Positions 1 to 50,672 of a stretch of DNA of 64,000 bases are shown one piece after another. This DNA is from Amphiscolops sp. MND2022 (lineage: Eukaryota). A program made the translations under genes and the position numbers. A model generated the notes under the pieces. That model saw only the letters and a list, made by a program, of their open reading frames with translations, was not told the origin of the DNA and did not search any database. The stretch covers positions 32,302,001 through 32,366,000 of the forward strand of contig OZ076420.1 in NCBI GenBank assembly GCA_964187785.1, in the 5' to 3' direction. Numbering within the stretch: the stretch's first letter is position 1; each line of letters opens with the position of its first letter.

Positions 1-1036
1 GCAACAGTTTGTAAAATGTGTCCAATTTGTTCCTGGTTGAGGGCGATGGTCGGGTGTCCCTGTGGAAATTAAATGATGGGGTTTTCTCAAAATAGGTCCG
101 GATTAGTTCTTGACTATTGATAGATAGTGGGGCAGGCCCCCCGGTGCGATGGATTGCTTCCTCAGGAGAAACATAGCTAGACTCACTTAGGGCAGGAGCA
201 CAGTTTTTGACTGGAGCGGCAATAGCGTCAGCTAATGTCGACCTCTTGGGCTGAACAGACTCAGGGTCACTAATGGCCGGGACTTCTGCTTCATTACATG
301 ACATGGGTATGTCCTCTCCTGACGTAGCCTGGGACTGAGAATCAATGGGGCTGGAGGTGGAGACTCCGCTGACAACAGGGTGCTCTCGTGCTGGGGCAAA
401 TATAAATTCCATCGTTAGAGCACTAATGTTGACCTTACTCTTAGGGTGCTTACTGCCTTGTCCCTGATCGCGTACGTTAGAGTGTAGGGGAGGAGTAGCG
501 AGAGAAATCTTCTCCAGTTCTTGTTAACGAATCTCGGCTATTGGACAGGCAGGAGGAGCTGTCGGGTTCAGTTCTATGGGTTCGCTGATGCTGACCTTAG
601 GTGGGGTTGACAGAACGTCAGACGCATCTTTCTTTCTCTGGGAGCACATAGCGGCAAATTTTCGAGAACAATAGGCACCCACACTTTCGTCAGAACCACT
701 ACTGGCAAACACGGAACCTCCTCGTTTATAAATTTTGGCTAAAAGGGATGTACTCTCGGCTTCACGCTTGATTTGAGCTACACCTAAACGCTCCGGTGTA
801 GTGACCTTTGGATCAGTCTGTTTCTGAGGGGTATATTCAGGCTCGGAAGAGGATATGGTAATCTCAATAACTTCAATCTCATCTTCAGTGCGGTCACTAG
901 ATTGTTCCTCGACGTCAGCATTTTGTTGGCTAGTATCCATCATCTCTTCGTTTGGCTGAGTTGGTTGGCCGTTTGAATTCTCTCCTAAACGGAAAGAAAT
1001 AAATGAGTGCGGTTGACTTCCTGCATAATAATCCAT
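1..1036 (-). pseudogene. Decayed acidic, low-complexity accessory ORF of a retroelement
   Basis: ORF 524-1036 continues in the same frame past one TAA (524-526): QELEKISLATPP...RTYFEKTPSFNF. Near position 60 it appears to shift frame to PQGHPTIALNQEQIGHILQTVA at the window edge. Confidence 0.55.
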
Positions 1037-1418
1037 CTTGCCGCAAATTTAAGAAACCTTCCAGAAGTAAGTTAGACACAGTGTTCACGTTTGTGACAGA
1101 ACATTTCATGATAGAGGAAGTGGCAAAGTTAGAATTTAGTCCTGATCAAGTTTGTTTCTAACAAAATTAAAAGAACCAACCTGATGTCTCATCCATATGG
1201 AAAGGCAGAATTGATGTGACTCAGTCCTTTACTAATATCCGCTGGGTATTGAAGAGTTGGACCAGTTACAGGATAGTTCACAGTAAGTCAAGTCCGCTCA
1301 AGTAGATTAGATCCTCAAAGATCCCAAAATAAGAAATTCACTCGATGGGAAATAACAGTTTAACTGCCAAATTGCCTGGGAAATAGTGGGTGGCCTTACT
1401 CGGAAAGCTGGTAATAGA

Positions 1419-1720
1419 CCCAAGGCCAGAGAGACTGCAAGAGAATACCGAAATAATCTATTGCAACTCAAGTGATGCTACTTGAGGTTGATTACTCAGC
1501 AATTGAAAAGATAAGAAATTTAAATGCAGGAATGATTTGAGGAAAGGAAAGTTCAAACTGATTGCGATGAGACCCGCTACTTTGGAGCCCAAGGTCAGAG
1601 AGACTGCACTAAATTACAAAGGTAAGTCAGTACAGCTCAAGTGACACTACTTGAATATCAAGTAACAAGGAGAATGCAATTGAATTGAAAGATTACAACT
1701 AGAATAATGAACGAAATTTT
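1419..1720. repeat. Degenerate tandem duplication, period 169 bp
   Basis: cccaagg(c/t)cagagagactgca...ctcaagtga..ctacttga...aattgaaa occurs at 1419 and again at 1588. Confidence 0.7.
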
Positions 1721-2797
1721 ACTGGCTGAATCAAATGAAAGATGTCAACTGACACTCTTTGTCGCACCAGTTACTAAGGCTATCCAATTCTTATATTTAC
1801 TTAACCAGAACGCTTCAATATACTAACACGCTGTACCATCCAAGTGACGTCACGAATACATTTAGACTGAAAGTACACTAGACAGCACTCCTTTACCAGC
1901 ATAGTAGTACATGACTAATTAGACGCAAGGTCCACTTAACTGCAAACAAATACCTCCATACTACTATTCACACTTCACAAGGAGTAATCGATTACAATTA
2001 TGACGTCATCATCACCTTCTTACCTGAAGTCGTGTTAATGGCATTATGATACTCCTCAGTACTCACCACTAGCAATTATGGAACCATCTCCATCCCTTCT
2101 CTGATTTTATCCAATATGCACAATTCGTTGTTACTAATTCCTAACATCAAAGAGTCGTGGCTACATGTAAACTTGCTCAATGTTATCATATATCTAGACC
2201 AACGTGACAATAAGTCCCGTATCTGCCAGCGGTGTACTTATTGAAAGTTAACATTTTGAAAGATTGACAAATCTTCATTCGGTTAATCGCTCCGTGCCAT
2301 CTCATTCCATAGAATTACGAATCATTTCATAAAATTTAGTCAATTTTCTTTACTCTGTGATTTTTCTTGAATTCACCCATTATTATCATCCACTCATTCA
2401 GAAAGCTAATTGGTCAGACCAGCTATTGCAGTCGGCCTGACCAAAGGTCTTTGATGCCAATTGTTTACAAAGAGTTAACACTAACACCTCTTAAAGCGTC
2501 AATGAGATGTCTTTTAAAGGGAGAGTAAACTCAACTCAAGAGGCAATTATTAAACTCTTACAGACCGTAAACTCTAGATTGTTGATGACCATTCACCCAA
2601 ATTGAAACCTATAAGGAAACAGTTGGGGAAGATGTGGGTAAATTTCCCGCTCAACCATTCCCGCGAAAACGGGAGTAGACCTAAAGTCAGTTTGACTTCA
2701 CCCCATCATTCTTACCCTAAACTTCTCTCTGAATCGGTCGCAAAGAAACTCAAATCAAAATTGCTAAAAGCTTCTCATTCAACGTTTCTACAAGGAA

Positions 2798-3622
2798 ATG
2801 TTTCTACAATTTTCATTGGAGGAGCAAGATAGGCCTCTAGTTAGTCTTTCGTACCAGTCATCCGATGAAGAAATGGAAGTAGACTCAGTGTCAGTTGCAG
2901 ATGGACCTGACGGTGAAGATTCTGACGACGATATACAAGTTCTCGCTTGTTATCGTGAAAATATACCCTTCCCTCCACAACTCATCGCAGGTCCGGCTAT
3001 GACGACAGAGTTAACACATTGCTTAAACGACCTGAACATACCAGATGACGATCTAATTGGATCAGCAAGCACTTTTACAGATCCGTCTCAAGACTTGCTC
3101 GATTGGTGCGTGGGTGGCCCCCCAAGAACTTCTTGTGGCTCAAATGCAAATGACCACCCAATAACGTACTGTGGCCAGCTAAACCCAATACGGGACTCCC
3201 CATGGTCACCTCCGCTAGAAGACCAAGGTCCCTCAATTGACACCCACCAGTCTATGCAACCACATGGTTCAGCAAACTCATGGTATGGCAATTCACACAT
3301 CACAGGCCTAGGGATTAGCGTCAGTGGAAGCTGTGGCCAACCGAATGAGACAATCCAATCTGGTTGCGTGATTTGGGGGAAATCATCAGCGGACATTAAA
3401 GAAGAAATAACACTGGGGTACCTTGAACAGACACACATTCCCGGAGAAACTTATGAGCAGCGGATTGCTAGACGTGATGCATTCCAGGCAGGCATGAAAG
3501 CAGGGACTTTCATACTTGTACCGGGGGGACTGTCGCAAGCTGCCGCTTGTGACGGCATTCTATACAAAATGATGCCAGAAGGTAATGAGACACTACCAGC
3601 ACCCGGAGTACTACCTATCTAG
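2798..3622 (+). CDS. Retroelement accessory ORF (274 aa, acidic N-terminus), function unknown
   Basis: Intact ORF ending 55 nt before the LTR start at 3678; no recognisable domain; acidic stretch SSDEEMEVD...DSDDDIQVL. Confidence 0.5.
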   Translation: MFLQFSLEEQDRPLVSLSYQSSDEEMEVDSVSVADGPDGEDSDDDIQVLACYRENIPFPPQLIAGPAMTTELTHCLNDLNIPDDDLIGSASTFTDPSQDLLDWCVGGPPRTSCGSNANDHPITYCGQLNPIRDSPWSPPLEDQGPSIDTHQSMQPHGSANSWYGNSHITGLGISVSGSCGQPNETIQSGCVIWGKSSADIKEEITLGYLEQTHIPGETYEQRIARRDAFQAGMKAGTFILVPGGLSQAAACDGILYKMMPEGNETLPAPGVLPI

Positions 3623-3677
3623 TACTCTGAAACGAACTTTAGCATTCATTCTGATAGTTTAATATTTGTTTCATACA

Positions 3678-5063
3678 TGTAACGACCGGATTATTATCGC
3701 TAAACATGAAATTTCGATGTTACTATTTCGACCTAAGGTCAAACTGACAGCATTCAAACAGTGCATTTATTCAATTGCTATTATTGAATTGTTATTATTT
3801 GGAATTTCTCATTGATGAAATTACTCGCAATTAATCTGAACCTAAAGTATATTACTTAGTTAACGATGCAATCCTTATCAAATTAACTCAAGTGCTGTTA
3901 AACGGTGTAAAACACTTTTCTGAGTATTTAATTAACTAGTACTCTACTGCTGTCAAATTGGCGTGTGGTCACAAGTACCTGTTGACCAATCAGAGTGAAG
4001 TACCAGTCTATCATTGCAGTCATGCTGGCGCATGGTCAAATTTGGAATTTCATTGAGTATTGATGTTACCAATGCATGAAAGGTTGTTTTCAACCTGAAT
4101 TTGAATACATGTAAAGATACCCACTGTTTGTTTGATGCTAGTTATATCTCCTCATTTGTGTGACGTAATGTCAAAACCTTCAGTCTATTTTTAGAACCAG
4201 TGACCTAATAACGGAACCGGGGCTGTTTTTAGAATGATATCACCCTAAATTTAGTTCCTGACACGCAAAAAATTGCATGTCATGCAGTATAAACTATATA
4301 TACGCGGAATTTGTAATAGAGAGGATTCATTCATTGATTCAGAACGCTATGATACAAAACTGTTCAATTTGTTACTGTTAACTTATTCACTGTTGAAATC
4401 AAATCCATTTCTTGAAAATGCCTTCAACTAGAAAGCAGAAATCAAAAGAGAAACGCTCTAGACAGTCCGACGTAATGTCTGATATAGAAAATCTAGATGT
4501 AATGCTAGGAAGTTATCAGAGAGAAAATAATGAATTTCGGAGTGAGAATAACGAAAATACATTAGACCAAAGGTCAAATGAACGGGAAGGCCAGGATCAA
4601 AATGTAGATGACTATCAAACCTTCTTGAATAACAATCCAAACGAAAATAGTTGTTTGACTATTGAAACTAGTAGAGCTATTAGCTCTGAAATTTCATCAC
4701 AGATGTCGAGGAAATTTCAAGAAATGCAAACTAGCCTAAAATCTTAGATATTGGACGTTATAAACACTGCAATTGACACTAGGGTGCTGCCTAGCATCAA
4801 AAATGCTGTTAGGAGACAGAATTCAGCGAAAAATATAAATTTGGACCTTCGGTCAGACGGACTGCATCAAGACACTGCAGCCCCAGAAAATTCTCAGAAG
4901 GACCTTCGGTCAAATAGACTGCATTTAGAAAATATCAATAAATCAAACCAGGATGCTCAGAATGTGTTTCCGAGGTTAATATCGATCAAAAGTAACCAAA
5001 CAAACCATCGTAGAGAGAATTCAGTTGATTCTCAAGAAAGCGATGATGAGTACGGTTACGACA
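3678..5063 (+). mobile_element. Long LTR (1386 bp) containing an MPSTRKQK-type ORF
   Basis: Starts TGTAACGACC, ends GGTTACGACA. ORF from ATG 4418 (one in-frame TAG at 4745) runs to the LTR end. Shares non-coding motifs (gacctaaggtc, cagtgca, ccaatcagagtg) with the LTR at 58165-59634. Confidence 0.75.
3971..4000 (+). promoter_or_regulatory. CCAAT-containing motif conserved among diverged long LTRs
   Basis: acaagtacctgttgaccaatcagagtgaag; related motifs on the minus strand at 17001-17015 (gtactgttaaccaat) and 59341-59375 (acaagtattttgcaccaatcagagtgcag). Function is inferred. Confidence 0.4.
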
Positions 5064-5798
5064 GTATCTGTATTGCTTTGTTTTCGAGACCATTTCAATG
5101 AAAAATTTCATTGAAATATTCTCTAGATCATGATTGAATTAAGTAATGCAAAAGTGCACAAAACTCCAAGAGCCATGAATTTCCATCAAAATTTGTTTAT
5201 CCAGCTAAAAATCAAGAAATTTTTCATTAACAACTAGGTGTTCGCAAACTTTTGATACCTTTTTGTATAAGCATGCAATGTAACGAAAAGCAAAATAGAC
5301 TAGAAATTTCGAACTGGTCGAGAAGTTTCACAAGATATACATTGATGCACGGGACAGGTCCTAACTACCGTAAAACGTTTTTTTTCTCTGAAATGGCTCA
5401 ATTTTGGGAGTCGCTTTTTATAATTGTTAAGATCTCGTCGTTATCTATTGAAAACAATGTTCATGGAAAGTAATCTCTTTCAACTGTACTATATCAAAGT
5501 ATAATTTTTGACTGAGTATCTAAATGTAACAACATAAATAAGACAGAAATCAGTTAGAGTTTGTTTGTAAATATAATCAAGCAACTCTCTGTCTATGGTA
5601 GTTTAGTCTGTGCGAAATGGTTTGACCACTACATTCCACATTCCCCCTCCTCCGGGTGGATCCGGTTAAGCGCGATTGTTTTGGTTGGTAGTTCCAAAAT
5701 AATCGGTTAAAGGTTTGGTTTTCCAACGTTGTCCGTATCTCACGGTTGATCGTCCGTATTTCACGGTTGGTTCCTTCTTCACAGTGTGATTGGTACGG

Positions 5799-8700
5799 TT
5801 AGCTGGTTTGGCTTTCCTGTAAAATACAAATTTTATTTGTTTTCTTTTTAATATTTGTATAGTATGGGATACCGCCTAATTTTTCGGTTTGTTTTGCATT
5901 GGGTATTCCTTTCAACTTTCCCACCGTTTGGTAGGGTTCATCATACAGTAAATTCGTTTTTATACCTGATTCAGGAGTTAAGTTTGTCTCCTTTGGAAGT
6001 AGCTGTAGTTCGTCCTCCACATTGGTGTGGACGGGCTTTCCTTCACTGGTATTGAAGCATTGGAAATCGTCACCATCGGACACCATGCTTAAGTCGAGGT
6101 CCATTGGTTTTCCTGCCGACTTGTCAGGGCTTGTAAATTGGCCTCTTTCATTTCTTCGTTGGTCCTTTCTCTTGGGCCAATCAGCACTGCTCTCCGTGTT
6201 CTCCGGTCGTGGTTTCTCTTTTCTGCGGTATATGCAGGTTGTTTTCGCAGTTTTTGAGCAGGTTGGCTTGTCGGCTGTTGTTGTCAATCTAGTGCTGATT
6301 CTTTTCGTTGGTGTTGCTGAAAGGGTAACGGGTTAGATATTAATTTCTTGTTTTGGGGTTTGTTATTGTCAATAGTTACGGTGTGTTTGGTCCCCGAAAT
6401 TGCAATACGCGGTTTTTTATTAAATTTGCTTCCAAGCGAGCTTTTTGTATGTGCTTTTTTGAAAAAAGTAAACGGATAATATGTATTTTTACCGGTATTT
6501 ACCGTATTTGACAGTTTTGTTTTTGGATAAAAGTCATTCCTCTCCAATATTTCGGGTCGTTGATTTTCTTCTTCGACATCGCCAGATGTTCTGTTATTTC
6601 GCCGGCAGAGTTGCGGATAATTTAGACTGATAAGTCCTTGGAATCAACTGAAATAGCATTTTTTCGGTTAGATAGTTTTGTTCCAGGTTCTCGTCCAAAA
6701 TGCAGTTCAAAAGGGGTTTTCTTTGTTTCTGAATGTATAGTAAAACGGAGGACATATAGTGCTTTGTAAAAGCTTTCTCATAGGTTTTGTGTTTTTTTTC
6801 TAATTTTGTCTTTATCAGATTCTTCAGTGATTTTTTGGATCTTTCAACCAATCCTCTACCAGTGTGCAGGTTTGGTGTGCCGTTTTGACGGATTATAATG
6901 TATTCTTTGCAAAAGCTTTTATATTTTTTTTGAGATAAAAGCGCTGCCGTTGTCCGATTCGATTGTTTTCGGTACTCCGCATAGGTTTATGTATTCCCGT
7001 AGGAATGTTATACCAGTGTCGTGGTTTGTATGTTTAAAGATATTTGCTACCGGCTAGCGGCTATTTTTGTCTACGGCTACTAGTATAAAAGGGGAGGAAT
7101 CTAAGTGTTTACTGTTTAGATTTCCCGTGAAAACGACTTCGATTTCCTCTCCTTGTCATTTTGGCGGTTCAAGTTTTGATTTTTTAGTGATAAGTAGTTG
7201 GGTTTTCAAATTCTTACCGGCATTTAGGCATGCGGAACAGGTTTTTGCTTTCTTCCCTCTGTATTCTCGCATGTTTGGCCTCCAGAAGATAACTGCGTCA
7301 TTCCCCTTCTTGTTTATTCCTGGGTGGCCGAAATGTAACGCGTTGAGTGCGGCGTATCGCAGGCTTCTTGGAACGATGATTCGAACCCTCGTTATTCCTC
7401 AGCGGTGAGTCAGCTTCTGCGCTACTTGCTTGTAGTCTTTTGGGATAGCCTGGATGTTATCGTCTTCGATGCAGCACTGTACTTCGTTTAAGTCTGGGTC
7501 AGCTGCTGTTTCTGTGATCAGCGTTTCCAAGTCGGGCATAAAATCAAGTTCCGCGGATCTGATGTTATCTTCTTGTTGGCGGTTTCTTGGTGCCTTTGTT
7601 TCGATGATTTTGTTTGTTCGCACATAAGGAACAGCTATTTCCTCGATCGGGACGTCACAGTATTCTTGAACGGAGATTGCTGGATATGTTCCCGGTTCTT
7701 CTGTTTTTGCCGGTTCTTCTGGTGATGAAGAGATCGTAGATTCGGTATCTGGTGCGGCTTCCTGAATGCTGATGGTTTCTAGATTTGTTTCGGCTGATGT
7801 GCCGGGTGTTTGTGGGATTTCGTCCCCAAAGTTTTCAAAGTAACCGCCTCCGATATCTGTGACGTGGTTTTCCTTTTTTCTTCGTAGGCGGATGTCGATT
7901 CGTTTTATTTCTTTCCTGTCGACGTCATCTGGTCTTCTTGGGACGAGTATTTCTCTCTTGAGTTTTTTGTGCCATTGGTGTTGCATGTGACCCGGTCTCG
8001 TCGGTTCAATTCTTCTTTCGATTAATTCTCTGGTCTCCGGTGAATTATCTCTTCTGTTGATTTTTTTCATAATCTCATCATCGGCTCCCCAATGGTATTT
8101 CAATCTGCCGTCTGGTGTGAATCGGTCATTTGCCGGTTGTTGTTGTTGTCCATCGTTTCTAGATGAGTGTAGATTTTGTGATAACTGTATGTAGTGTTGT
8201 TAATCTGATTAGCGGTCAGTTTCAAATTGGAATGGTTGATGTTTGTTTTGCGGCGGCGCGTACCAGTTTGCGTGTGCGTATCATGCATGCTTGTCGTATT
8301 GATGTTTTCTGATTGGTCGAAAATCCGTCCTATTCTGCAGTTTACCGTAGCAAGTTGCGCGATGGCGCTGATAACAAATTCTTTTTCATAAATTTCTTCC
8401 GGTTCAGCAATTTCTGTTGGATTTCGGCTAATGAAATTGGTAAAATTGATATCTTTACCGGCGGTATATTTGAGTGTTTTGTCAAAATGGTTTAATCTGT
8501 CTAGCCGTATTAGTCGGCCACTGTACTGTTTGTTTGTTTTGTTTCTCTTCAATAGTGGTTCCAGAGTTTGGTGGTCCGAGAACGATTGGACTTGTTTTCC
8601 ATATAACTGAAATCTAAACCGTTCAACGCCCCAGACTAGAGCTAATAGTCTAGTTCGCCGACAGAATTTTTTTCTGCGTCGTTCAGGTAGCGGCTTGCAT

Positions 8701-10119
8701 ATGCGATTGCTTTCAATTAGCCGTTGTGTTGTCGTTGCCATAGCGCTGTTCCTAAACCGGTATTACACGCGTCGGTTGTAACGATATTTTGTTTGTTGCC
8801 GTTGTAGTGCGCTAGACACGGTTGTGTTGTCAATTCTTTTTTCAGGTTGTTGAATTCTGCATTTCGTTCCTCTGTCTATTCCCATTTCATTCCTTTTTTC
8901 AGTAATTATCTCATTTTGTCCGTCTTTTCGGATAGGTTCGATATGAGTTATGCAAAATTTTGTATTGCTCCAAGAAATGATTTCAGTGTTCTTGTATTTG
9001 TCAGTGGGTTCAGTTCGTTGACTGCGTCTGTTTTTTCTTTAATTGGCCTGATTCCAACTTGTGGAATGATGTGTCCCATCCATACCGTTTCCTTCTGGTA
9101 AAATTCCGACTTCTTTTTACTGGTTTTGTAGCCTTCGTTCTCCAGTTTTGTTAGGACTGATTCCAGTTTTGGTGTGTGTTGTTCCTTTGTTCCGCGTGTC
9201 ACAAAAATTATGCCATCCAGCCATACTGGTATTTGGTGGCCGAGTGTTCGATCTATTTTCTCTTGAAAGATAGTAGGTATGTCAGCTGGTCCGTAAGTTC
9301 CTTTAATGAATCGGTTGTATCCGTTGATTTTCTCTCCCGTAATAGCAAAATTACAGTGTTTACTTGTTTCCGGTGATAATTTCATTTGTCCGTAAGCATA
9401 GTCTAAGTCTATGACTGATGTCCAGATTAGATTGGGTCTAGCTCATTCTTTGATAGCTCGGAGGAGATTTGGTTTAATGATTCGTCCATATTTGGCATGT
9501 GTGGCCTTTTTTTGATGCAGCTATCATTTAGTTTTCGGCGTCAAGTGCAATTTTGACCGTTTTGTCTTTTTTTACCGTAATTACGACGGGGGATACGAAA
9601 CAGTCTTCTTCGATTGTTTATAGTCTTTCCAAATGTCCGGATTTTTTAGTCGGTCTAGTTCGTTTTTTACATCGTCTTGTAGGTGGTATGGTATTGGTCA
9701 TGCTTTTTTTGTTGTATTGGGTAGCACCCCGGCTTTATTTGTATTTTCACTTCGGTATTCTTGATGGTGTGTTTTGTTCCGAATAGTTTCTTGAATTTCG
9801 TATGTATCGTTGTTGCTGATTGGCCGGTTTTGTTGTCCAATGAGATTTTGTTGATAGTGTTCGGCAGTTGTTTTAACCAGTTTACTCCTAATAAAGGTGT
9901 AACGTCGGTCTTTTTTGTAATTAGGAGTGGTAATTTGGTTTGTTTACTGTTGTATTCGATATTTACCCATAGTTTTCCCAGGAATTTGATTTCATTTTTA
10001 ATTACATCTTGATTTCTTTCCTTCAGTGGTTGGATGTCTTCTGGGTTGTAAAATGTGGTGTTGTTTGGCATGATAGTAACCGGAGAACCGGTGTCAATGA
10101 TAATTTTTGATTTTTCCAT
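5799..10119 (-). pseudogene. pol: pol (protease, RT, RNase H, integrase), many frameshifts and stops
   Basis: PR IIIDTGS (9667-10119). RT with WLDG in place of the xxDD motif (8948-9385). RH LLALVWGVERFR..SDHQTL (8100-8741). IN LHFGHP..CSACL, AVDKNSR, IESDNGSA, GLVERS (about 6600-7400). Confidence 0.9.
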
Positions 10120-10249
10120 TTATTTTCATTTCAACACCGTAGTGGTCAATGTTGTCCGGTATTATTCTGTTATTCTGTGTGATCTGGAGTATTCCTTCGG
10201 GATCGCTTTCTTCACTGTCTTCTTCGGAGGTCATATCTTCCAGATAGTT

Positions 10250-11110
10250 GATTCTTTTTGTTTTGTTTGGTTTTGTGCGGCATACCCGTGCAAAATGCCC
10301 TATTTTCTGGCAGTTGTTGCATTTTACCGTTCTGGCCGGGCAGTTGTGTTGGGGTGTCCAGTTTTGCTGTCCGCAGAATCCGCAGTTGTTTTTCTTCTGT
10401 TTTTGTTCTTCTCGGTATTGTTTTGTTTGAATTTTCGTGATGGGTTCTTGTTTTATCTCTTTGTCTTTCGCCAGTGCGGGTGGTATGGTAGATTGTTTGT
10501 GTCGACGGTCGAAGCTGTCTTGTGTGATAAGTTCTACGGTGATTTTCAGGTTTAGGGTTTCTTCGCGAAATAGTTTTTCCCGGAGTTTTTTGTCGGATAC
10601 GATTGTAATTAATTTCGATATGAGTAGATCTTCTTGTTTGATGTCTTTAAATTCGCATGCCTTTTCTAGTCTTATTTTTTTCCAATGTTCTTCGGGCGTT
10701 TCATTTTCTCATTGTTTGGGCCAGAAGAAATCTCCACAGCGGTGGTAAGTGTTTCTCATTGGCATGTAATATTCTCGTTGTATCAACTTGTCGGTTTGGA
10801 TTGTGTCGGGGTCCGTGTTGAATTGTCTTTTTGTGATAATTTCAAATGCCGACGGACCGGCGCCCCAAATGAAGTCTTGTCTGATTTCTGGTTCTTCTGT
10901 ATCCCATGGGTCGCTGGTAGGTACCGTATCATCCGTTAATATCGGTTTGATGTCTATGTTGTGGATTCTTTTTATGTAGTGCCGAATTCTTCTGGTCCAT
11001 TCTTTATGTGTGTATATCTTCTTTCCGTCAAGTCCGGTATCTTCTAGGTATGGTAGTTGTATCTTTGTTGCCACGGTCATTTTGTAATAATCATAGGTTG
11101 ATAAAAATGT
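10250..11110 (-). pseudogene. gag: gag (frameshifted) with a decayed CCHC zinc knuckle
   Basis: ORF 10709-11203 (MTVATKIQLPYLEDTG...DFIWGAGPSAFEII) follows the PBS; a frameshifted Cys/His knuckle lies near 10280-10350. Confidence 0.75.
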
Positions 11111-12255
11111 TTTGTGCCGTAGTAGGAAAGTTCGATAAAAATTTTGCTTACTGCGCCATGTTAAGATCTCGTCGTTATCTATTAAAAACAATGTTCGTGG
11201 CAAGTAATCTCTTTCAACTGTACTATATCAAAGTATACTTTTTGACTGAGTATCTAAATGTAACAACATAAATAGAAAGAAATCAATTAGAGTTTGTTTG
11301 TAAATATAATCAAGCAACTCTCTGTCTATGGTTTGACCTCTACATTCCACAATAATATCCTCCGACTTCCCCCAATCTGTTGCTGCTATTAGTTATCAAA
11401 ACCATCCACTGATTAACAAGTGAAGTTCACCAATGAAACCAAGTATTTCCCATGTTTCCACAGACTTCGCTACAAAGAGCTCCAAGTATCAAAATTCCTT
11501 TGCCTAATAACCTGAAAATGGGAATCGAGCAAAATTTGGAAGAGCTCTTGAGCTGGCAACCGTAAATACGAAATTATCTGGAAAAATCTATGCTTCAGGA
11601 AGCGTGGACATGCCAAAAGATTCTTTTTCCCACCTGCTAAGGGTGTCTGGTGTTTGTTTAGCGTCTTCGCACGTCTTTTTGTTCAATTTTTCAAAAGTCC
11701 AAAAGAAGCAGCAAAACAATTTTAATGCAATTATTATGGACTTTTCAATGTCAGGTCGTAGAAAAAATTGAAATAAGATGGGAACGCTTCGCATGGGGCA
11801 CTGTTAAAAATGGACTTAACAAAACCAGATTTATCAAAGTGATTTAGTGTTCTGCAGAAAAAAAAGTCGTCACTGCAATGACGTTTCAACCGAACTGAAT
11901 TAGGCAGGTCTGCAGTGGTTTTGCACTTTTTGAAAATTAGGCGCAATGTTGTCGTCGTATACTTGTTGCTCACAAGATTGGTGTTTTTCAACGTCAGATG
12001 ATGGAGAAACTAGGTTGTAAAAACTGAATGGAGTTTGAAAGATTATGGATGACTTTGAAGGGTGAAAATTGAAACGAATTTATGTATAGAGCTGTATTGT
12101 ATGAGAACCGTATGAGAGAAAAGTCAATTAAGAGTGTCATTTAGTTGGTAACCCAGAAGCTTGAAAGTTAAAGGTTAACTGAAAAAGTTTAAAACAGTTC
12201 AGTTGCTACAAAATTAATCTGAAACAATTGCCTTTAATTAAGCAACCAATTTCAG

Positions 12256-12875
12256 CTAAACTAGCCGAGTCACCGGAAATGGATGATGATTCACGAGAGA
12301 TGCTCTCATTCCTCTGGATTCTCCGATCTTGGTTGTTGGACTGCACTGCTCACGGAATACCCAAAGTGGTCTCGTCTGCCAACTTCAACCGAAAGATTTT
12401 CTGGCTGTTGGCTGTGATCATTTGCAGTGCTTGTTTCATCTACCAGATCGGCATAATGTTCCAAGACGTTTTCAGCTACCCCATAACTGTCAGTGTCCAA
12501 ATCAAGTATCCAGATAACCTCATAATGCCTACAGTTACAATTTGTAACTCCAATAAACTGAAAGAATCGAGCTTGAGAGAGTATGATAACAGAGCAGAGA
12601 CTCAGTTGCACAAAGTATTGTTGTTCGAAGACTTCACGTCAATCGGGATGAATGAAATTGAGAAAACATTGTATGAACAGCTTCAAAAATACCAAACGAA
12701 CACAACTACTAGAACAAAGGAGGGACGAACTCCCCAAGGAACGTCAAGCCAAAGCCCGGAAACTGAAGCCAATCCACCTCCACCACCTGACACCTATCAG
12801 ATCGATTGCAACGCTACGTACCCATATACTCTGAACTGGGACGATTCTAACAGTTTCAAATACCGCCCTGAATCG
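12256..12875 (+). CDS. DEG/ENaC exon: N-terminus, HG motif, TM1, start of ectodomain
   Basis: Acceptor tttcag|ct at 12255/12256; donor tcg|gtatcc at 12875/12876 (phase 0). Confidence 0.9.
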
Positions 12876-15800: not shown

Positions 15801-18800
15801 AAGTCCGGATAGTGTTGAAAAAACTATCGGTGGATATAGTGAGAAAATCTAGAATCAGACACAAATTGATAGTTTGAAATAGTCGAATTGTGACAAAAAA
15901 TCGATAGTGGGCGCTTTAGTATCGTTCGCTTTTCTTAGTTGCTTTAAAACAGAAAAAAAAACGAAAAGAAAGACCCTTTGCCGTAACTTAGTGTAAGGAA
16001 TTTGGTCATTAGTGTCTCTAAAATCAAATGCGGAGAAAGAATTCTTCCTTGTTAATTTCCTTTTCAATCCACATGTTCCCTCGTTGCTATTCGGAATTTT
16101 GTTGGACGCTCCCGACTCAGTGTCCCTTTGTTCTGAAGACAGCGTACCCATTTTATTTTGTATTTCAGAAATACCTCTATTGCTAATAGCAGTGCTTATG
16201 GCCCTGTTGAACTGAGAGTGCATCATTGACGTCAAGTAACCCGATTCCTAGGAAAGTCTCATACTCATTTCATTTGAGAAGATTTCCTTCGATTCAATAC
16301 GTCTACCTTGTCTATGAAATTTTGCTTTCAACAATAAAATTCCTAGTTTCATTCATTTGTGACGAATTTTTTCTGTTATTGGAAAAAGCCTCAGTGTCGA
16401 TATGACTAACTGAGTCATTGATAGTATTAGGTAGTTATCGCTCAATAGGATTTGAGCTTTCGTCACCTAATTTTGCGTCCCTGTCTGCAAAGTCGGGTTA
16501 CAAATCCGTCTCTCTCGAGCTTCTTGCCTTTCCTTTCTGTTTTTTTAGTAGGAGGCATAAGAAAGTATCACATGGGAAGAATATAATCACATTTGCCTTG
16601 TAGATAACATAGTTTTACAGTTTTGTTGAATATCAGATTTTCAACTTCAGTTTTGTGTCGGGTACTACAAGTCCCGGGTAAAATACTCAAATTACAAAAG
16701 CACCCATACTTAAGAACATCATTACCCCATAACTAGGTGACGCTAATCTAAAAATAACACAATGACGACAATCCTGTTCTAGATATAGCCAGCAAAGGCC
16801 ATTTTTATTTTCCTTACAAGGCCGACTTCAGGCATATGAACATTTTATTAAAGATCATACGTGTTCAAATACAATTCACTGCGAGTGGCATGATGCCCTT
16901 CGTGTCCCCATATACTTTAGGCGCTTTTATTGCAAACATGCGGGTTGAAAAACAAACTAATGTTGAAATGAGAGCTCTACGGGATGGAAATATCAACTTC
17001 ATTGGTTAACAGTACAACAAAGAGTATTTATTTCCTATTAACTAAATATCCAACAGTACTGTTTTAATTTGGAGCGAACATCCCGTAATCGGTTGATTGA
17101 CTTAATTTTCGTCTCCGCATGGCACTTGGCCGTATACATATACTTAATCACAGCATTATTACTAAAAAATAGGCGCCTCCGATTAGTATATTGAAATTTG
17201 GACCAGTGGTCCACCACGCCATGCGAGAAGGCATTTGATTTCTTTTCCTTCTCGCTTGTACGCTTGGTGTCTAATATTAGCGCTACATATAACATTATAC
17301 ATACACTATACTACGGTATACTACGCTATACTACGCTATAGTATTATACATATTCAATAACATTGTCGATAAGTTACTGGAAAGAACATGGAAACAACAG
17401 CATATTATAAAAGGTTGAAAGTTGGTTATTCTCAACTTAACAGGATCGTTTTTGCAACGCTCTCTGGTAATCGTGGCTGAAGGAAGCTATGTTGCAATCT
17501 CAGGCAGCTGCTTCGGGCACTTTCCCAGGTGCTAAGATGAAGGAGCCAAACTTCATACCTTCGAGAAATGCTGGGTGCCTTGCTTTTAACTGCTCCGTAG
17601 ACTGGCCCCTCACGGCTCTTTGAGGACGTCCATAACTGCTTTGTCTTGCATTGGCTGGAGTGAGTTTCCACAGACAAGGCAATCGGTGCAGCCAGTGATG
17701 TACGTGCATTCCTTGACATCTGGTCTTTTGAATTGGGTTCAGACTAACTCTACCTCCTGAGTTGGCTGCCTTGAGTAGTTTGTCGGAGCATACGTTTCAT
17801 ATGTAGGGTACTTGTCCTCGAATTGTGGAGGCAAGTGTGTGTACACCAACGGGGTCAATTTTCCGCATAAGTTGTTGGGATGATTATTCCTCAAGCGCGT
17901 ACCTCTCTGGCGATAGAACTTCTGCGCCCCCGCTTGTCAAAAAAGGCTGGGGTAGACGAAGGCCCAGGATTAATGGAAGGCCTCGGGGCAACACTTATTT
18001 ACGGCTTAGCGTTCAACTTGTTAGCAGTCATTGTTGGTACGATTCTCCTAGTGAAAGTGATCACCATCTGTCTTTCCACACACTGAGTCAGCAATGCCAC
18101 GTCCTTTGATAGTTCTTTCACAGCTTCCACTGATGCATCGCTCGAGCATTCCATGGAGTCGTCTCTTGAAACGAGACTACACTGATGGGTCGTGTGGACC
18201 CATTGATAGACTCCATTTCAAAGTATAGGGAGAGAAACGTAAGCATCATAGCCATTTTGAAAGATTGATTGAGGTTTGTTTTAAGAGCTAGCGTTGAAGA
18301 CCAACAGTTTTGCATTAGATTAAAAAAAGATGTGATAAGGCATCTCACTTAAGTTTCGAAATGAATTCCTCCCAGCTAGTTTTGATTTTTCCCAGGCATT
18401 CCTCCCTTTGTTGATGAGAAATTGCTCAATACCATATTCATTCCTTGCTTTGATTAGAATCCGCCATCTTTTTTTTGGCTCTCAAATGCCTCAAAAGTAC
18501 TTGAGGCGGCGAAAAACCATCACTCAGTTGTTAAGTGTTTTCTACCCCTTCAACAGCCACTTGAAAGTCTCGAGATGTTGTGAAGAAGGTGGATGACAGC
18601 CGTATTCTTCCTTCACTCATAAGACAATAAGAATGTTGAAAAATTTTGGTTGATCATGCCATCGATCCATATAAGGAAACAATCAAAATAATGTGAAATT
18701 TTGAAAATATTGGAATACAAGAATAGGTTGTTATTTAAATGTATATAATGCAGATATTCCTGGCAGATGATCCACATGTCATTGATATCTTCATATAGCT

Positions 18801-21800
18801 ATAGTATTAGAAACCAATACAAATAGGCAGGTACTCCAATTTCCTTATTTTTGTCTCAACATTGTTAAATCGCCAGTTTGTCATCCAATTCCTTTTACAT
18901 ATTACCCCTTTTGCAGCTTCTAATATTTATCTTTTTGTAAATAATCACTTCTTTCTAACATCATTTAGTTTTCTAGTCTTTGCGTCATTGTCATTTTGTT
19001 ACTTTTGCTTTCAACGTTTAATGCATCATCATCTTCTCATCATCCCTTCTTGGATTGTCTTTCGGAAATCTCGTCCTCATCCCCAAGTCTAGCTCATCTC
19101 TGTCAACTTTCACCCTTACAATTTTCTCGTCAGTATAGTCTTCCTTTTGGAACAACGATACCCACCTAGTCCACACATTCCAACTCAACTGCCAGTTGTG
19201 ACTGAATCAACTTCGTTTTCACCAGCAGAATTCTGTCCAGTTGGACACCTCAGGTTTTTCTATCTCGTTGTGGTTTTGATTTTCGATTTTGCACGGGAAT
19301 AGGCTTGACCAGGGCTTTCGTCTTGTTCACGTATTTCTTTTCCTTTAAAACGCAAGTCTTCACAGGTGTTCTGTTTTATCTACTTTCGGAAGAGTTTGAA
19401 TCCGGCGTTTTGGATTTCTTTTCAGGAAGTTCAGCGCTAATTGATAACCTTGATGTTTAGCTATGTCAACAGGAAGGGATACATGTTTGCCTGAGAGTCT
19501 CTTCGCACATCTATCAGAAATAACGACCGTCAATCCTTTTACTGCCAGTAGAAACCGTCAATCCTTGCTACTGCTGCTCACTACAGAGGCATGTCTTCAC
19601 CCATTTGTTACTCCTCCAAGTCCTTCCACTGAGGAAAGCCTCAACGTCTACAGTGAATAAACTCTACTAAATTCCCACAGCTTCGGTATGAAACACTGCC
19701 ACTCCGCCTCCAACTGGTCCTGCTACCAGGTTTGTTCAAACCAGAGCGGAACCCGAAGTTTTCGGAGGGTCCATCATTGTCAATCAGACTGAGAGGCCAC
19801 TCTCGCTGAAGGCCAAGCATCACCGCAAGTTGCTTCTGATGTGATTAGTGAAGTTAGCGGTCAGTACCAGGGGGTCAACTAAGTGCCTACTGATTCACGT
19901 GAAGTTGAAGATCTGCTTGACAGCTCGGGGGTAGAGTACAAGTTTAATAGGCCTGTTACCCTCACATTGGACTCAGTTGTCTTACCGACCACCCAAAGGA
20001 ATCTGTACCCAGGTCAAGACATCAGTGATTGTGAATAGGGTGGAAATTTGCCACCGAGTACCAGTACTCCTCGTCAGGTATCTGCAACTTGTAGGGCCGT
20101 AATTCGGAAACGATTTTCCGAATATCCTTCAAAATCAGTACTCATCGGCCACTACACCGTCGCATTTAGTGAAGGCCAAATTCATCGCGTTTTCCGTGTC
20201 ACCTCAGATGAAACAGCTCTTTCATCTTTTCACCTGGTGAAAACATTGTTAGCAGGAGCACGTTCAGGTGGTGTTCCACTCGGGGAAGACCAATAATCCT
20301 GGTCTTCGTAGAACCCCTCAACCACGGTGTCCTCCTGAATGAAATATTTACGGTTGGTTGTCACAACGAGGGGTACACCAGTTGTGTCCTCAGTTCAGAT
20401 GAAGATCTAGCGGTCTTTGAATCGGCACAAGGATTTGTGTCGACTGCCGATACAGTCCCAACTTCCATCTCCACTGCAACAATTGCATCCGATATGCCTC
20501 TCGGTCTATCCGTCAACAGCATGCCGAGCTCGAGATACAGTGAAGCCGACTCTCAACCCCTAGCCCAGGAGTGCTAGCGCACTATTGTCAGTCCTACCAT
20601 CCCCCGCCCTCCTCGCAAACAAAGCAGACTCATGTGCAAACCCGGCAAAATGATTAAGAACCTCTTTGAAGGCAATGGCTGAACAAAAACTTTTGTGACA
20701 GATCACCTCGAACCAGAGCACAGCAAACATAAGTTTTACTGCCAAATTTGTGGAACAAATGTTTCAATCTTCTCAAAAGGCGCAAGAGAATTAGTCTGGC
20801 ACTACCAATTGGAATCTCATCTTCGCAAAGATCAACGTATGAGAGACGAGTACCCGGGGAAACTGACAAGATCACAGGGGTTACCAATCACTAAGTCCGC
20901 GGCAAAGACGATCACGTTTTAACTGCTTTTGAACTTAGGAGAGAAGTCTTTATTTGAGAATGCGCCATAAGTGGACATCGGGGACATGACTGTCTTTGGT
21001 GATTTTCGAATCCGACAGAGGTACGAGCAACGATAGCAGATCTCCATGATTGGCCTATTTGTTGTTCGCTGCGGGGACATTATACTGCTGCAGAATATGC
21101 GGGCCCAAGTCGGCATAACTGCCAATCACCAGGAAATTTTCTCCCCTTTTGACTGGAGCGCCACAACACATACATTAGGTATCTTGTTTCTAGTCAGAGC
21201 TCTCTCATGATCTATCATCATGTTATATTTTTTATCATTTGTTTCGTTTCACACCATCTTTCATAACATCTTCCTGTGCGGCATTGCAGACGTCGCGCAC
21301 CAGATCATATCATCCGAAATGTACTTTCTCGAGTTTGAACTAAAAGGCACCCACTGCTCAGTCTTCATCCGTTTTTGGAAAACAGATTTCTCGTCCTTGT
21401 TTACCTATGCTGTTACCGACAAGTACAGATTCTCCAGTTGGGATATTCAACTGGTCTCCCTCTGTGTTTGCCACCAAGACGAGTCTGGTTAGCGTGTCGG
21501 GGTGTCCGGCTGGATTATTAGCTCGCGTCGTGGAAAGATCCACTGTCTTCGGCCAGGTGTTCCAATCCCCCGTTAGCGTTCTGTTTTCGCCGAACTTGAT
21601 GCACCGACCACGAGGGAGCATGTTCGGGCTATTCGACTTCTTTTCTCAGTTGAATTTACTTGTCATTTTCCTCGATGGCTGTCAAAATCTGATTTGGATC
21701 GTTCAGACTCCTGAGCTTTCTCAAGTAGGTATTCCTTTCCTTCACAGGGCATCTTTCCCCATAGTCTGGATCTCACTTTCGGTTTTCGGCAAGCAGTCTG

Positions 21801-24800
21801 AACTTGAAACCTCCACTTGGCTCAATTCCAGCGATAGGTTCAGATCTTCTTGCGAAATGAAAGCCCATACTGGACTACATGGCCAAAACTGCCCCAACTC
21901 AACCAATGCAAGGTGTCCGAAATGAGAAAGGTATACTCCATTTCACCTTATTCCCTTTTGGCTTTTGCTTTGTACGACTGCCTCGAAAATCCTGTCAAAC
22001 AATTGTGTGTATGCTTTTGGCTTCAGCCTCAAAGTCGCGAGTGGCTCAATATAACGGACAACTTTCGTCTGTCAAACTGGAGTTCTTTGGCAGAATCCTC
22101 AGGGATTGTTAGTATATCAGTTGTTTTATGGTACATCCTGATACTTTCCACGCTGTCCTCTAATGTTCGTTCAGACCAAAGACTGTCCCTTTGTGATTGT
22201 CTGTGCATCACCCGTCTGCTGTTTAGATACAGATTCAAAAAATTTTGAAAAGAGTCTCTCATGACGTAAAGACTCTGAGTGCTTCATTTTGGGTAGTAAC
22301 ACCAGTTCATGAAAAAGCTATGTTATCTGTCTTTCCCGCCCCCGTATCTCCTTGGGAAATCCAATTGGTCGTCGCTGCTCGCAATAACAGGTCAGGAACT
22401 CCGACAGTTGTCATGTCGTGAATTGCTCTTTCAATTAAAGCTGATTTCGAATTTTAATGGGGTTTGTCGTTTCAGGATGGCGCTTGTCGCATCAAGGCTT
22501 AACGTGAAATATGCGACAAGAAGCCTCGCAGCATAAATATGGAGAGTCTGACTGATGCTGCCAAAGAAGTGATCACTTCGAAGGCTCGGTGCTACCTTGT
22601 CTCTCTTGTTGAGTCTCCTAAATGCCAACCTTTCCAGAATTGAGGCAAGTTTCGATCCAACTGACTTGTTGTTACCAGTTGACCAGGCCACCTTTTGTTT
22701 TACATCCCTGTTTCAGAGGTTCTACTTGCGAGGAAGGTTACCTCATTCGCCTGAGACAGAACTCTTGAATTCTTGGATCAGTTCCGCTGTTTCGCTGTAC
22801 ACATGAAAGCAACAGCATAATAAAGTTTGTAAGTTGTCGCAGCCTGCGCAGTGCTGCGTGACCCCAATGTAAATGTAAAAATGATGTTTGTAATGTAAAT
22901 GTTAAAATATTATTGAGAACTTAACGCAGTACCTAAAATACACAAAGATTTGAATACTCAAACAAAATTAAGTGCAGTGTTTGTTTGTAGTCAAGCAGGC
23001 AACGCGTTGACTGAAGTTAATTGTTTAATTTAGGGTGATTTGTTTGCCTAAACACATGAAGATAATAGAGCTAATACGTTATTTTATCTGCAATCGTTGT
23101 TTTGTTGCAGCTTAAATAAAGTAGGCTAATCGTTGCCTCTGAACACTTGGTTTGACGTCCCAGTCAACTATTTAGTTGCCCGAAACCAGAAGCATTGCCT
23201 GGAATGTGACCAGGATATTTTTACTACCAATGTTTGTAACGCTAATTACTCGCGTCCAATAATCGTTTTTAGTGCTCGAAAATTCTTCAATTCAATATTT
23301 AAGGCAGTTTATTCGAGTATGATTGAGAAATCCATTTTTCTTTGTTGTAAATATCATATTCTTTTCACGCTTCAGTAGCTAGGTTCATGATATTTAGTTC
23401 CACTTTCGGCGTATCGAATTGGCGCTGAAGAAAGAAAAAGGAATGCGGCATTGGGACTGCGACAGGAGGTAGACTCCCACTTTTCCTTAAAAGTGAAATG
23501 ACGCTGAACGGCAAGTCCAGAAGAAACCTCCGTTTTTTGGATTTCCTCGCCTCGCCTCGGTAGGACGCCGATTTGAACAAATTGGTGAATTCACGCACGG
23601 GGTTTATCCCGCGTGTCTTGCGTGAATTTAAAAAACCTGGAGCGTGATCGGAGAGGTCATTATTTTTGCACCCTAACTTGCGCAGTACTCTTTTTTAAGA
23701 AGTACTCTTTTCCATTTCTGAAATTGCAACTAGTAAATGTTCTCATTTTGGCAATCATGTATTTTCTCAAAAAACAGCACTTTGCAAAAGCCGGATTTGC
23801 TTCCAGCAGTTTAAAGGAAAATGTCGAATCTAATTGAATTACTGCCACCACAAAGATTGTTCGACTAAAGAGCATGCCCAAAAGGTCATTAAGGGGGAAA
23901 TTGGGAATTGACCCATCTAGCAATCAGGAAGCAAGCGTAGTCTTTAGCCCTTCAGTTGACGAAAATCAGTCTCTTTCTCAGCGTGATTTCGGCCTATCTT
24001 TCTAACAAAATCGAAATTGGAATATCCAAAAGCCTGATTTCGGACAACGAGAAATCTTAAGACTGATAGAGAATCTCTCGTTCAGAGTGTATAGTCTTTC
24101 AAACACTTGGTCTTAACAAGGTTGTCCGGTAGTAATTTGAGAGATCCCGAAGGAGTAACACCTGAGGAAGTCAAAAGAACAAACGTGACAAGAAACTTTA
24201 GTCTCAACATGGTGACAGGAGTTACAGCGAACCAACCCGGAAACAAACACCAAGGATCTTCCTTTCTGCCACCTCGAAACCAGAGGTACCCGGAAGATAT
24301 CAGCGATAAGCTCTTTTAATCGTTTCGAGCGGCAACACAACAGAAATCAGACGTCCCCTCGGGCGTCTCAAACAAAAGAGACACGTGGTGCTTGCCTCGA
24401 TGGACTTCCAGCAATTGTCAATGGACGTTCTCATCAACTTGGGAGCAATGGTTACTTGCATGCCAGAAACTGAATACATAAAGCTCATCCGATCCACCAA
24501 AGCTCATCCGGAACCGATCCACCAGGTTTCATACTGAAAGTCGCAAATGACGACATTGATAAGCCAATCAAAACAAAACGAAACATAGGTTCAGATCTTC
24601 TTGCGAAATGAAAGCCCATACTGGACTACATGGCCAAAACTGCCCCAACTCAACCAATGCAAGGTGTCCGAAATGAGAAAGGTATACTCCATTTCACCTT
24701 ATTCCCTTTTGGCTTTTGCTTTGTACGACTGCCTCGAAAATCCTGTCAAACAATTGTGTGTATGCTTTTGGCTTCAGCCTCAAAGTCGCGAGTGGCTCAA

Positions 24801-48706: not shown

Positions 48707-50672
48707 ATAGTTTTTTTGTATTACTAGCCAACTCTGCGTAGTTCGTAGCCGTCATGTAATTGTAGAAAGGACGAATCCAATCCTTCCATGGAGTTCTTTG
48801 TTTCCCAGGATCAGGTAAAAAAGGTTGGGGCGCAGGTAGGTGTAAAATTTCAGACATTGGTTTCGCTAGTTTTAACTTATCTCTGTCGCCATTTCATCTT
48901 CTTGACTGCGGGAAAACCTTCGCTACTTATTCAATCCTATCTCTGTCGTTATTTCATATTCTTGACTGCGGGAAAACCTTCGTTACTTATTCAGTCAATC
49001 ACGAATCAAAATTATGTGCCTATCAATCATGTATGAATCATTCATTCAGAATATATACCACAGCAACATTTGAAAAATTCGGGAAGAATGTCTCATAATG
49101 CCGAAAAAACCGGTAACACCAAACCAAAAAGATGGAAAAATGAGAAAAAAAGAGTGGGATATTTTTTGTATCACAAAAAGCGCCTACTAAAAAACAACCC
49201 ATTTTTCCATCAAAAAACCTCAAACTGTTTTCCGTAGATGAATCTAATAACCAATGTGAGTCATAAAACAAGATAGTTATGGTACTGTATTTTCGTTATT
49301 AATACTTGAATTTTTCGAACAAAAAACTGATTCAGTGAAATAATACTTTGTACAACAGTATTTGCGAAAATCTTGAGATTATCGCCCCAATGAAGGTGCC
49401 AGCGAAAGATGTACTTTGGCCAGTCTTCCGACTGGCTAACAGTTAAGAAGTTTCATTTGAAGTCAATACGTAACAGTCAACGAGAGGGCACGATTGGAAC
49501 GAACAACAAGAAAAAAATATAAAAAAAGTTGAAAAATATTGACCAACTGAAAAATCTACTACGGAAATTTTGAAAAGGGTGAGAAAACTCCTTTTGTTCA
49601 GGACGAAGATGAAGCCTTGATTGGAATTCATTCCAATGTTCCACAATTGAAACCTTGTTTGTTTTGCTGCACAGTGACGGTAGGGTTTCTTACGTCACCT
49701 GGGGCAAAATTCCACATTGCTTTGCCTGTAGATAGTCGTAATGCGCACTCCTCCTGGAGCAGAAAAAACACTTGTTTTTGTCGTTTTAGACTTGTACCCG
49801 TTTTGAGAAGGTGTCAACATCGTGTGGATGACTGTTGAGGAGATAGGGAATTTGGGTTGCCGTTGCAACCAGACTTGTCCAGTGGTCGTTGTTATCTGCA
49901 CTCTTTGGCTGACGGTGACTACTAACATCCCTTTTCCTGAATACCCTTTTAAAAAAATCTCATTTTTGAAAACCTATTATCCACGTCTCGCAGTGCGTCT
50001 TTTGTGTGGGGTTGGCGAAAGTCCAGAGTTTGATTTTCTAGTTTGTGTTTATATTTGAGATTGTCTGTTAATTTTCTACTCATTCATTTGCTTTTTTGCT
50101 CAAGTTCTATTGCAATTCCTGGAGTTTATAAAACTTCTCAAATATTTAAGTAATCTATGTTGTGGAGTTCTAGTCTGAGTTATCGGCCGATATGCAGAAC
50201 TTAGTTTTTCAACGTAACAATGTAGCAAACAATTATTGCACTTGAAACGTTTGGATTTTTCGATTGGGGTTTGATATAAAGGCAAGCAGAACTCATTGTT
50301 GTTATTATATTTTCTTTTTTTCTGGTTTTTATTTATCACGGAATACAACATGGATGTCAGAATAACAAGCTTGGAACGGCCCAAGTCGGCCCCTCGCCCC
50401 TTGCTCAAGGTTCAAAAGAGTTAAGTTTATAAATATGCAAACAGGCACAATTGTTAAAATTTCATCATTTTTTTTTCGGAAAAAGTCTCATACTGCCGAA
50501 AACCTCAAATAAATTCGCAAAACGGCTTTCCAAGCAAAAAGTGTTTTAAAAATGATGGTGTACCATTTAACCGGAAGAGAACTATTGAAAAAAGGGTGTC
50601 AAAAAAAACTGTTCGTCTTCCGTCCAATTATTTGAGAAAATTCTAATCAGTGCCATAGGATGTTGCGGTTGG

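Follow-up and report, generated by a model that had tools for sequence, protein, structure and literature searches.

A 64,000-nt stretch of the Amphiscolops sp. MND2022 genome (contig OZ076420.1, positions 32,302,001 to 32,366,000; the window) contains three Ty3/gypsy retrotransposons of about 16 kb, each with two accessory genes between pol and the 3' long terminal repeat (LTR). The first, encoded antisense to gag-pol, specifies a protein with a hAT-like scaffold that is predicted to be non-cutting and, by this model, is not an active hAT transposase. The second is a sense open reading frame (ORF), termed ORF C, that runs into the 3' LTR. We propose, at a probability of about 0.5, that the antisense protein is a domesticated, non-cutting hAT that would bind DNA in the nucleus and regulate its own element, and that ORF C is a putative second, small regulator.

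Copies were sought in the same genome (1.07 Gb, of which the window is one 64-kb stretch). Ten were picked by ORF C, window element 1 among them, and five relatives were collected for each of elements 2 and 3; families 1 to 3 are numbered as the elements are. Prevalence was assessed in 20 copies evenly spaced among 144 reverse transcriptase (RT) matches and chosen by RT alone. All three window elements have the order LTR, gag, pol, antisense gene, spacer, sense ORF C, LTR. They show the TG...CA LTRs, primer-binding site (PBS), polypurine tract (PPT) and 5-bp target-site duplication (TSD) of Ty3/gypsy elements, and Pfam matches in one full pol frame give the gypsy-type order of protease, RT, RNase H and integrase. 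Of 20 copies examined, 16 have an LTR pair; these are 15.5–16.5 kb long with LTR identities of 96.3–99.95%, and in all 16 the PBS TGGTGACAGGAG lies 3' of the 5' LTR. The first-pass annotation of the window had described three LTRs lacking a PBS; we rejected this as a special feature, since the PBS adjoins the 5' LTR and the LTRs in question are ordinary 3' LTRs. The head-to-head layout of antisense gene, spacer, sense ORF and LTR that it had also described is present in all three window elements. Order and orientation are conserved in 10/10 ORF C-picked copies (the nine besides element 1 read LTR, gag, pol, antisense frames, spacer, ORF C, LTR) and in 5/5 relatives of element 2. Four of the five element 3 relatives hold an 872-codon antisense frame, and the fifth copy is decayed. 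In the ORF C-picked copies gag encodes about 598 aa and has its start codon inside the LTR; this start lies about 645 nt before the LTR end, and the frame reads across the PBS in full elements (window 4418–5063). A dUTPase-like stretch is present between protease and RT of pol (copy L034:4675-9852; E 6e-4, narrowly below the Pfam cut-off).

Element 1 occupies the left edge of the window, with the following features:

1 to 1036, minus strand: antisense gene, 5' part of exon 1; acidic, likely disordered N-terminus; in-frame stop at 524–526
1037 to 2759: spacer of 1.7 kb, presumed divergent promoter region
1058 to 1067: CTTCCGGAAG-type palindrome with one mismatch, about 20 nt upstream of the antisense ATG
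1468 to 1485 and 1637 to 1654: two TCAAGT-N6-ACTTGA palindromes in the spacer
2760 to 2762, plus strand: ATT codon, likely AUU start of ORF C, here out of frame with the ATG at 2798
2798 to 3622, plus strand: ORF C, 274 aa, reading through the PPT (3523–3529) and 30 codons into the LTR
3531 to 5063, plus strand: 3' LTR (TG...CA), with the first ~215 gag codons from 4418; TSD GTATC at 5064–5068

The 5' LTR, PBS, gag and pol of element 1 fall left of the window, as do the BED-like finger and exons 2–5 of its antisense gene; its LTRs are 96.3% identical and its TSD is GTATC. The 3' LTR had previously been placed at 3678–5063, and its true bounds are 3531–5063. The claim that gag-pol occurs only in the element flanked by TAAGT (element 3) was mistaken, because the gag-pol of element 1 sits just left of the window.

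The structure of the antisense protein was modelled from an 861-aa natural core frame of the single-exon, family-3 type with an alignment of 38 rows (predicted local distance difference test score, pLDDT, 73.9). Foldseek ranks 1–10 are all Hermes transposase, six of them at E ≤ 0.001. VIA-align matches the model to Hermes with Z 13.2 over 398 residues (root-mean-square deviation 5.0; next match Z 6.6), and its ranks 2, 3 and 5 are DDE-type recombinases too. The predicted fold spans residues 194–699 and comprises a Hermes-like RNase H-like core, helical insertion and C-terminal region. The language-model neighbours of the protein fall in hAT/FAM200/ZBED5-type clusters (0.90–0.93), and it has a conserved CxxC...H...H finger that is BED-like, with no zf-BED match in Pfam. 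It is very probable that the antisense gene is coding and of hAT origin. The catalytic apparatus appears to have been lost: across the 38 rows, strands 1 and 4 end without a conserved acidic residue, and neither a D-D-E triad nor a CxxH, TRW or ERxFS motif was seen in the antisense core. Resident hATs of the same genome, used as controls, do show such motifs, D-D-E included. Pfam finds no Transposase_28 (PF04195) in the antisense protein; a search of the genome for DUF4371 gave no match, and its control likewise gave none. The structure search suggested with the first-pass annotation led to Hermes for the antisense core and to no Foldseek match at E ≤ 0.001 for ORF C.

The three antisense genes are homologous, since a profile of the 872-codon family-3 protein matches the antisense exons of all 15 family 1 and 2 copies and of window elements 2 and 3. 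From its sequence the gene is likely spliced. Four introns of phases 0, 0, 0 and 1 interrupt the core in families 1 and 2; they occupy shared peptide positions and vary in sequence and length, and there is one doubtful 5' candidate besides. Among the 20 RT-picked copies, 115 of 115 scored splice junctions are GT or AG, and the other 25 of the 140 possible were unscored because the peptide anchor was unmatched. The family-3 core is a single exon, which by eye stays colinear with the exons of family 1 across introns 1 and 2. Family 3 has four phase-1 introns in its acidic 5' part, where the exons turn up again in four subfamilies and most have GT and AG in place. The intron sets of families 1 and 2 (core) and of family 3 (5' part) do not overlap, and the likeliest direction is that the core introns of family 3 were lost via RT. 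Longer forms of exon 5 were absent among 6604 candidates, which is weak evidence. We also tried the first 17 antisense codons, which end in TTTAG, as an intron; their length is identical in 15/15 copies and that of the other introns varies, so a coding assignment is preferred. The antisense ORFs first reported in the window are present in all three elements but are parts of multi-exon genes, with a stop in element 1 and decay in elements 2 and 3. Genome-wide, 51 of 64 family-3 core matches are free of stops.

Both accessory genes are under purifying selection, the ratio of nonsynonymous to synonymous substitution rates (dN/dS) across copies, a check proposed at the outset, being 0.1–0.2. Between element 1 and one relative it is 0.15–0.20 for four antisense segments and 0.10–0.18 for ORF C; gag and RT of the same pair give 0.24 and 0.19. 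Because dS is saturated in most between-family pairs, these ratios are drawn from few pairs. Passive, functionless cargo, or nested DNA-transposon insertions, would account for the fact that all antisense copies in the window are broken, and for very young pairs in which dN/dS is near 1 on few changes. RT, however, behaves in the same way in the young pairs, where the ratio is noisy for all genes. The accessory genes also keep the same position and orientation in families whose proteins share 21–35% identity, and their splice sites are conserved. With dN/dS at 0.1–0.2, these features largely refute a nested-insertion origin and make functionless cargo highly improbable. Self-comparisons of the copies gave no terminal inverted repeats or 8-bp TSD around the antisense gene, no dedicated search being made. 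The initial suggestion of a conserved, divergently arranged, non-env gene pair at the 3' end is thus borne out by layout and by purifying selection.

The antisense gene is present in 20/20 RT-picked copies and ORF C in 16/20 (10 kb fetched). Of the four in which no ORF C was seen, three are cut short where the spacer has an (ATT)n run, and the fourth has a 2-kb insertion. The run, present in the spacer of some alleles, lies near oriented position 6790 (copies L099, L106 and L109), and there foreign DNA interrupts these three copies; two of them share the same 3.5-kb sequence at 99%. Several pairs of copies are 95–98% identical in gag-pol, drop to 50–75% in the antisense gene and recover at ORF C or the LTR. 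In one pair the proportion of synonymous differences (pS) is 0.015 in RT but 0.75 in the antisense gene, and in two others it is 0.45 in RT but 0.02–0.11 in the antisense gene. Family 3 has two backbones and several antisense alleles in crossed combinations. Eleven copies with integrases 96–99% identical hold five antisense alleles (69–76% identity). They have two alleles of ORF C, both of which occur with one and the same antisense allele. For the most part ORF C moves together with the LTR and gag, which its overlap with the LTR would lead one to expect. The backbone, the antisense gene and ORF C reassort independently of one another and so do not form the single co-inherited cassette at first envisaged, and the sense ORF of family 3 is a different one.

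The movement of alleles bears on what the antisense protein may do. As an integration helper, a dead transposase would bind the complementary DNA or target chromatin and steer or shield the integrase complex, and swapped alleles would change target preference. Transposases bind DNA ends and target DNA, the predicted hAT scaffold and BED-like finger are kept, and no RT-picked copy is without the gene. Yet the alleles move freely among backbones with differing integrase, gag and RT, which poorly fits a tight partner of integrase or of LTR ends, and target sites are varied by eye; we consider such a helper rather unlikely. Alternatively, the antisense protein or RNA might interfere with rivals, whether other alleles or, as a dominant negative, active hATs, with ORF C a possible counterpart. 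Competition or immunity of this kind would suit deep, coexisting and freely swapped alleles in a genome with many resident hAT transposases (150 scored Dimer_Tnp_hAT matches). It would suit less well that antisense alleles are not tied to particular ORF C alleles and that the antisense protein has no sequence similarity to the resident hATs tested (8 frames), and we judge it quite improbable. These two are the chief alternatives to a regulator.

ORF C encodes an acidic protein of 274 aa with a conserved CxxC, and 119 of its 141 scored matches in the genome (56–100% identity) have no stop. Its position, in sense and just 5' of the 3' LTR, is that of env, and an env-like or membrane protein could serve cell-to-cell spread. 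The protein itself argues against this: the top 19-residue hydropathy is 1.26, 1.05 and 0.52 in the three ORF C types, which leaves no transmembrane stretch, the signal peptide and transmembrane anchor of an env protein were not found, and the model is mostly disordered save for a helical hairpin at 197–235. On hydropathy, disorder and the lack of a Pfam family we reject an env identity, which has very little chance of being right, and agree with the original description of a non-env protein. ORF C has no Pfam family, no Atlas match and no Foldseek match at the threshold given above, none of which shows novelty. Sequence conservation of ORF C extends 13 codons above the ATG, up to an ATT codon that is present in 23/23 copies (18 distinct contexts) with A at -3 in all 23. 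ATT makes up 138 of 340 isoleucine codons in the ORF C body, and 18 of 22 open copies lack an in-frame upstream ATG. The copies are related, so the independent cases are fewer than 23; the pattern points to AUU as the likely start. In family 3 the sense ORF, ORF C', encodes 209–219 aa in younger relatives, holds the same place and also enters the LTR. An ORF C profile matched none of six ORF C' proteins, and at the sequence level ORF C' is a different sequence with no detectable homology to ORF C.

The spacer between the two genes is short in family 3, at about 280 nt, and measures 1.1–1.7 kb in families 1 and 2. Of 15 family 1 and 2 copies, 14 have the palindrome CTTCCGGAAG (at most one mismatch), which we take to be a candidate ETS-type promoter element, some 20 nt above the antisense ATG. 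It is exact in 14 of 20 RT-picked copies, and window elements 1 and 2 have it in the same position. Three matches in the whole window are not above chance, so only the position of the palindrome counts. In human cells GABP sites drive bidirectional promoters, according to the available text of PMC2077898. ORF C lies more than 1 kb away and family 3 is without the motif, and two separate promoters are thus as likely as one bidirectional promoter.

A regulator of this origin could have arisen in a few steps. An ancestral element would have captured a hAT transposase gene in reverse orientation, an orientation that would shield introns, the packaged genomic RNA being of the opposite strand. Cutting would then have been lost, with retention of the BED-like finger, oligomer scaffold, acidic N-terminus and basic tail, features that would suit a DNA-binding activator or an anti-silencing factor. 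ORF C would be expressed from a subgenomic message ending in the 3' LTR and may serve as an acidic partner or transactivator. Both genes would probably be transcribed from internal promoters in the spacer and would probably keep the element expressed. Template switching between co-packaged RNAs would bring backbone, antisense allele and ORF C/LTR into new combinations, and alleles of old standing would persist, as expected under conflict with host silencing or between elements. More tentatively, the domesticated DNA transposase might be an allelic, sequence-specific anti-silencing or self-activating factor, produced from a spliced antisense gene with a divergent internal promoter, accompanied by an AUU-initiated, LTR-overlapping partner and traded as an independent module in an arms race, with whole intron sets gained and lost inside a retroelement.

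Several observations weigh against a domesticated hAT regulator. The hAT link comes from the structure model and language-model features, with no sequence-level match to hAT profiles: Pfam gave no family above its cut-off for the exons, ORF C or 38 full cores, PDB sequence searches with the antisense protein found nothing relevant, and HHalign of the antisense core against eight hAT frames of this genome returned a probability of 0.1% and no match. Foldseek TM-scores are modest (0.23–0.34 by query). The catalytic positions were placed from the secondary structure of the model, the third residue by eye, without residue-level superposition. The ORF C model is of low confidence (pLDDT 43), and for that reason the role of ORF C is argued from composition and position only. 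The ETS-like palindrome is absent from family 3 spacers. A high-copy 9-mer of the kind targeted by VANC is at shuffle level in 10/11 modules, and the exceptional module has a count of 6 against a null of 3–4 (exact 9-mers, not degenerate motifs).

Of the other two elements of the window, one is nested in the other. Element 2 lies on the minus strand from 36163 to 15992, has TSD CTTAG and has lost gag-pol. It matches the family-1 antisense exons and ORF C, and its five younger relatives are complete and hold the same module, at 31–39% identity. Its features are:

15992 to 17519, minus strand: 3' LTR, start at about 17519; TSD CTTAG at 15987–15991 and 36164–36168
17430 to 18260, minus strand: ORF C remnant, homologous to element 1 ORF C
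19410 to 22782, plus strand: antisense gene remnant with exons 1, 2 and the start of 5, the remainder deleted
about 20650 to 21186: antisense exon 1 with BED-like finger; 21247 to 21781: exon 2; 22303 to 22782: start of exon 5
36063 to 36163, minus strand: start of the 5' LTR, cut off from the rest by the nested TAAGT element

The sense ORF previously drawn from about 19150 to 17430 survives as the ORF C remnant at about 18260–17430, but 19150–18260 is stopped in all three frames. Element 3, the TAAGT element, is nested inside the 5' LTR of element 2, and its two LTRs are 75% identical to each other. Its features are:

25586 to 26960, plus strand: 5' LTR, with the PBS at 26961; TSD TAAGT
27118 to 29260, plus strand: pol remnants (protease, RT, RNase H, integrase); gag mostly deleted, its start kept
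29720 to 33329, minus strand: antisense gene remnant, short 5' exons and then the hAT-like core (profile matches 32092–30176)
33608 to 34190, plus strand: sense ORF C' remnant, about 280 nt from the antisense start, reading through the PPT into the LTR
34117 to 36057, plus strand: 3' LTR, with the PPT at 34111–34116; TSD TAAGT at 36058–36062

The sense ORF annotated here at 33608–33855 exists but extends to about 34190, and it has no detectable homology to ORF C. A second copy of the 5' LTR, at 22835–24209, is inside a 2751-bp tandem duplication (21834–24506 and 24585–27257, 99.7% identity) that includes part of element 2 and the element 3 5' LTR and is either a recent duplication or an assembly artefact.

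Further pieces of this lineage occur in the window. A solo or truncated LTR at 59762–58136 (minus strand) carries the last ~38 ORF C codons and the gag N-terminus, and every LTR of the lineage bears both gene fragments. A stray piece of family-3 antisense core is found at 49578–49832 (plus strand; E 2e-10). A different LTR element of about 5.9 kb, at 5425–11340 (minus strand), has short LTRs that are 96% identical and retains an RT remnant; the accessory module is absent from it. Positions 12250–12665 and 56836–57251 hold a duplicated coding piece, 87% identical, which we presume to resemble a DEG/ENaC channel N-terminus. A long inverted pair at 37946–38629 and 50673–51359 (70% over 700 bp, 12 kb apart) may represent DNA-transposon ends.

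Antisense extra ORFs of gypsy elements are already known, mainly from plants (PMC7264820). The available text of PMC7264820 and PMC11963269 describes such ORFs between pol and the 3' LTR in elements from plants and fungi (Grande gene23, RIRE2, Retand TRP28, Boty), with an upstream promoter of its own and a nuclear product for gene23; the word "intron" does not occur in the main text of PMC11963269. In the portion available, PMC7264820 calls most such ORFs unknown in origin and a transposable-element origin unsupported. As far as these accounts go, the antisense gene described here resembles them in its pol-3' LTR interval, its presence in most copies and its conservation, and differs in its animal host, its introns, its full predicted hAT fold and its head-to-head partner gene. 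Its origin can be read from the predicted fold: it appears that one class of mobile element took over the enzyme of another and disarmed it. Function is testable, since natural alleles on near-identical backbones differ only in the antisense gene. The same gene has non-overlapping intron sets in two lineages, which also makes it a compact case for the study of intron gain and RT-mediated intron loss.

In foamy viruses (tas/bet) and HIV (nef), as in the elements described here, a 3' ORF overlaps the PPT/U3. Third genes with internal promoters are described for Oikopleura Tor elements (PMC4402516) and ORF3 captures, in which ORF modules are shared between elements, for rotifers (PMC5408684); planarian Burro (PMC6431247) was compared as an animal LTR element with extra 3' coding. 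These and the retroviral cases share extra genes 3' of pol in animal LTR elements. Tor, rotifer elements and Burro differ in that theirs are env, esterase or exonuclease genes or polyprotein domains, and the available texts describe no antisense hAT-derived gene or divergent pair. We found no published description of an antisense hAT-derived gene in gypsy elements, subscription journals and Repbase being outside the search.

VANC of the Arabidopsis VANDAL transposons needs a high-copy short motif in its cognate element (PMC6719617, available text). Going by that account, the antisense protein is like VANC as an accessory protein proposed to act on the transposon family that carries it and unlike it in that 10/11 modules hold no exact high-copy 9-mer above shuffle level; no homology is claimed. 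Unlike hATs, the antisense protein is without the conserved catalytic Asp, shows no sequence-level hAT match and resides inside an LTR element. It is nevertheless like hATs (Hermes; PDB 8EDG, 8SJD, 4D1Q) and ZBED5/FAM200/C17orf113-type proteins in its predicted fold and possibly in its BED-like C2H2 finger.

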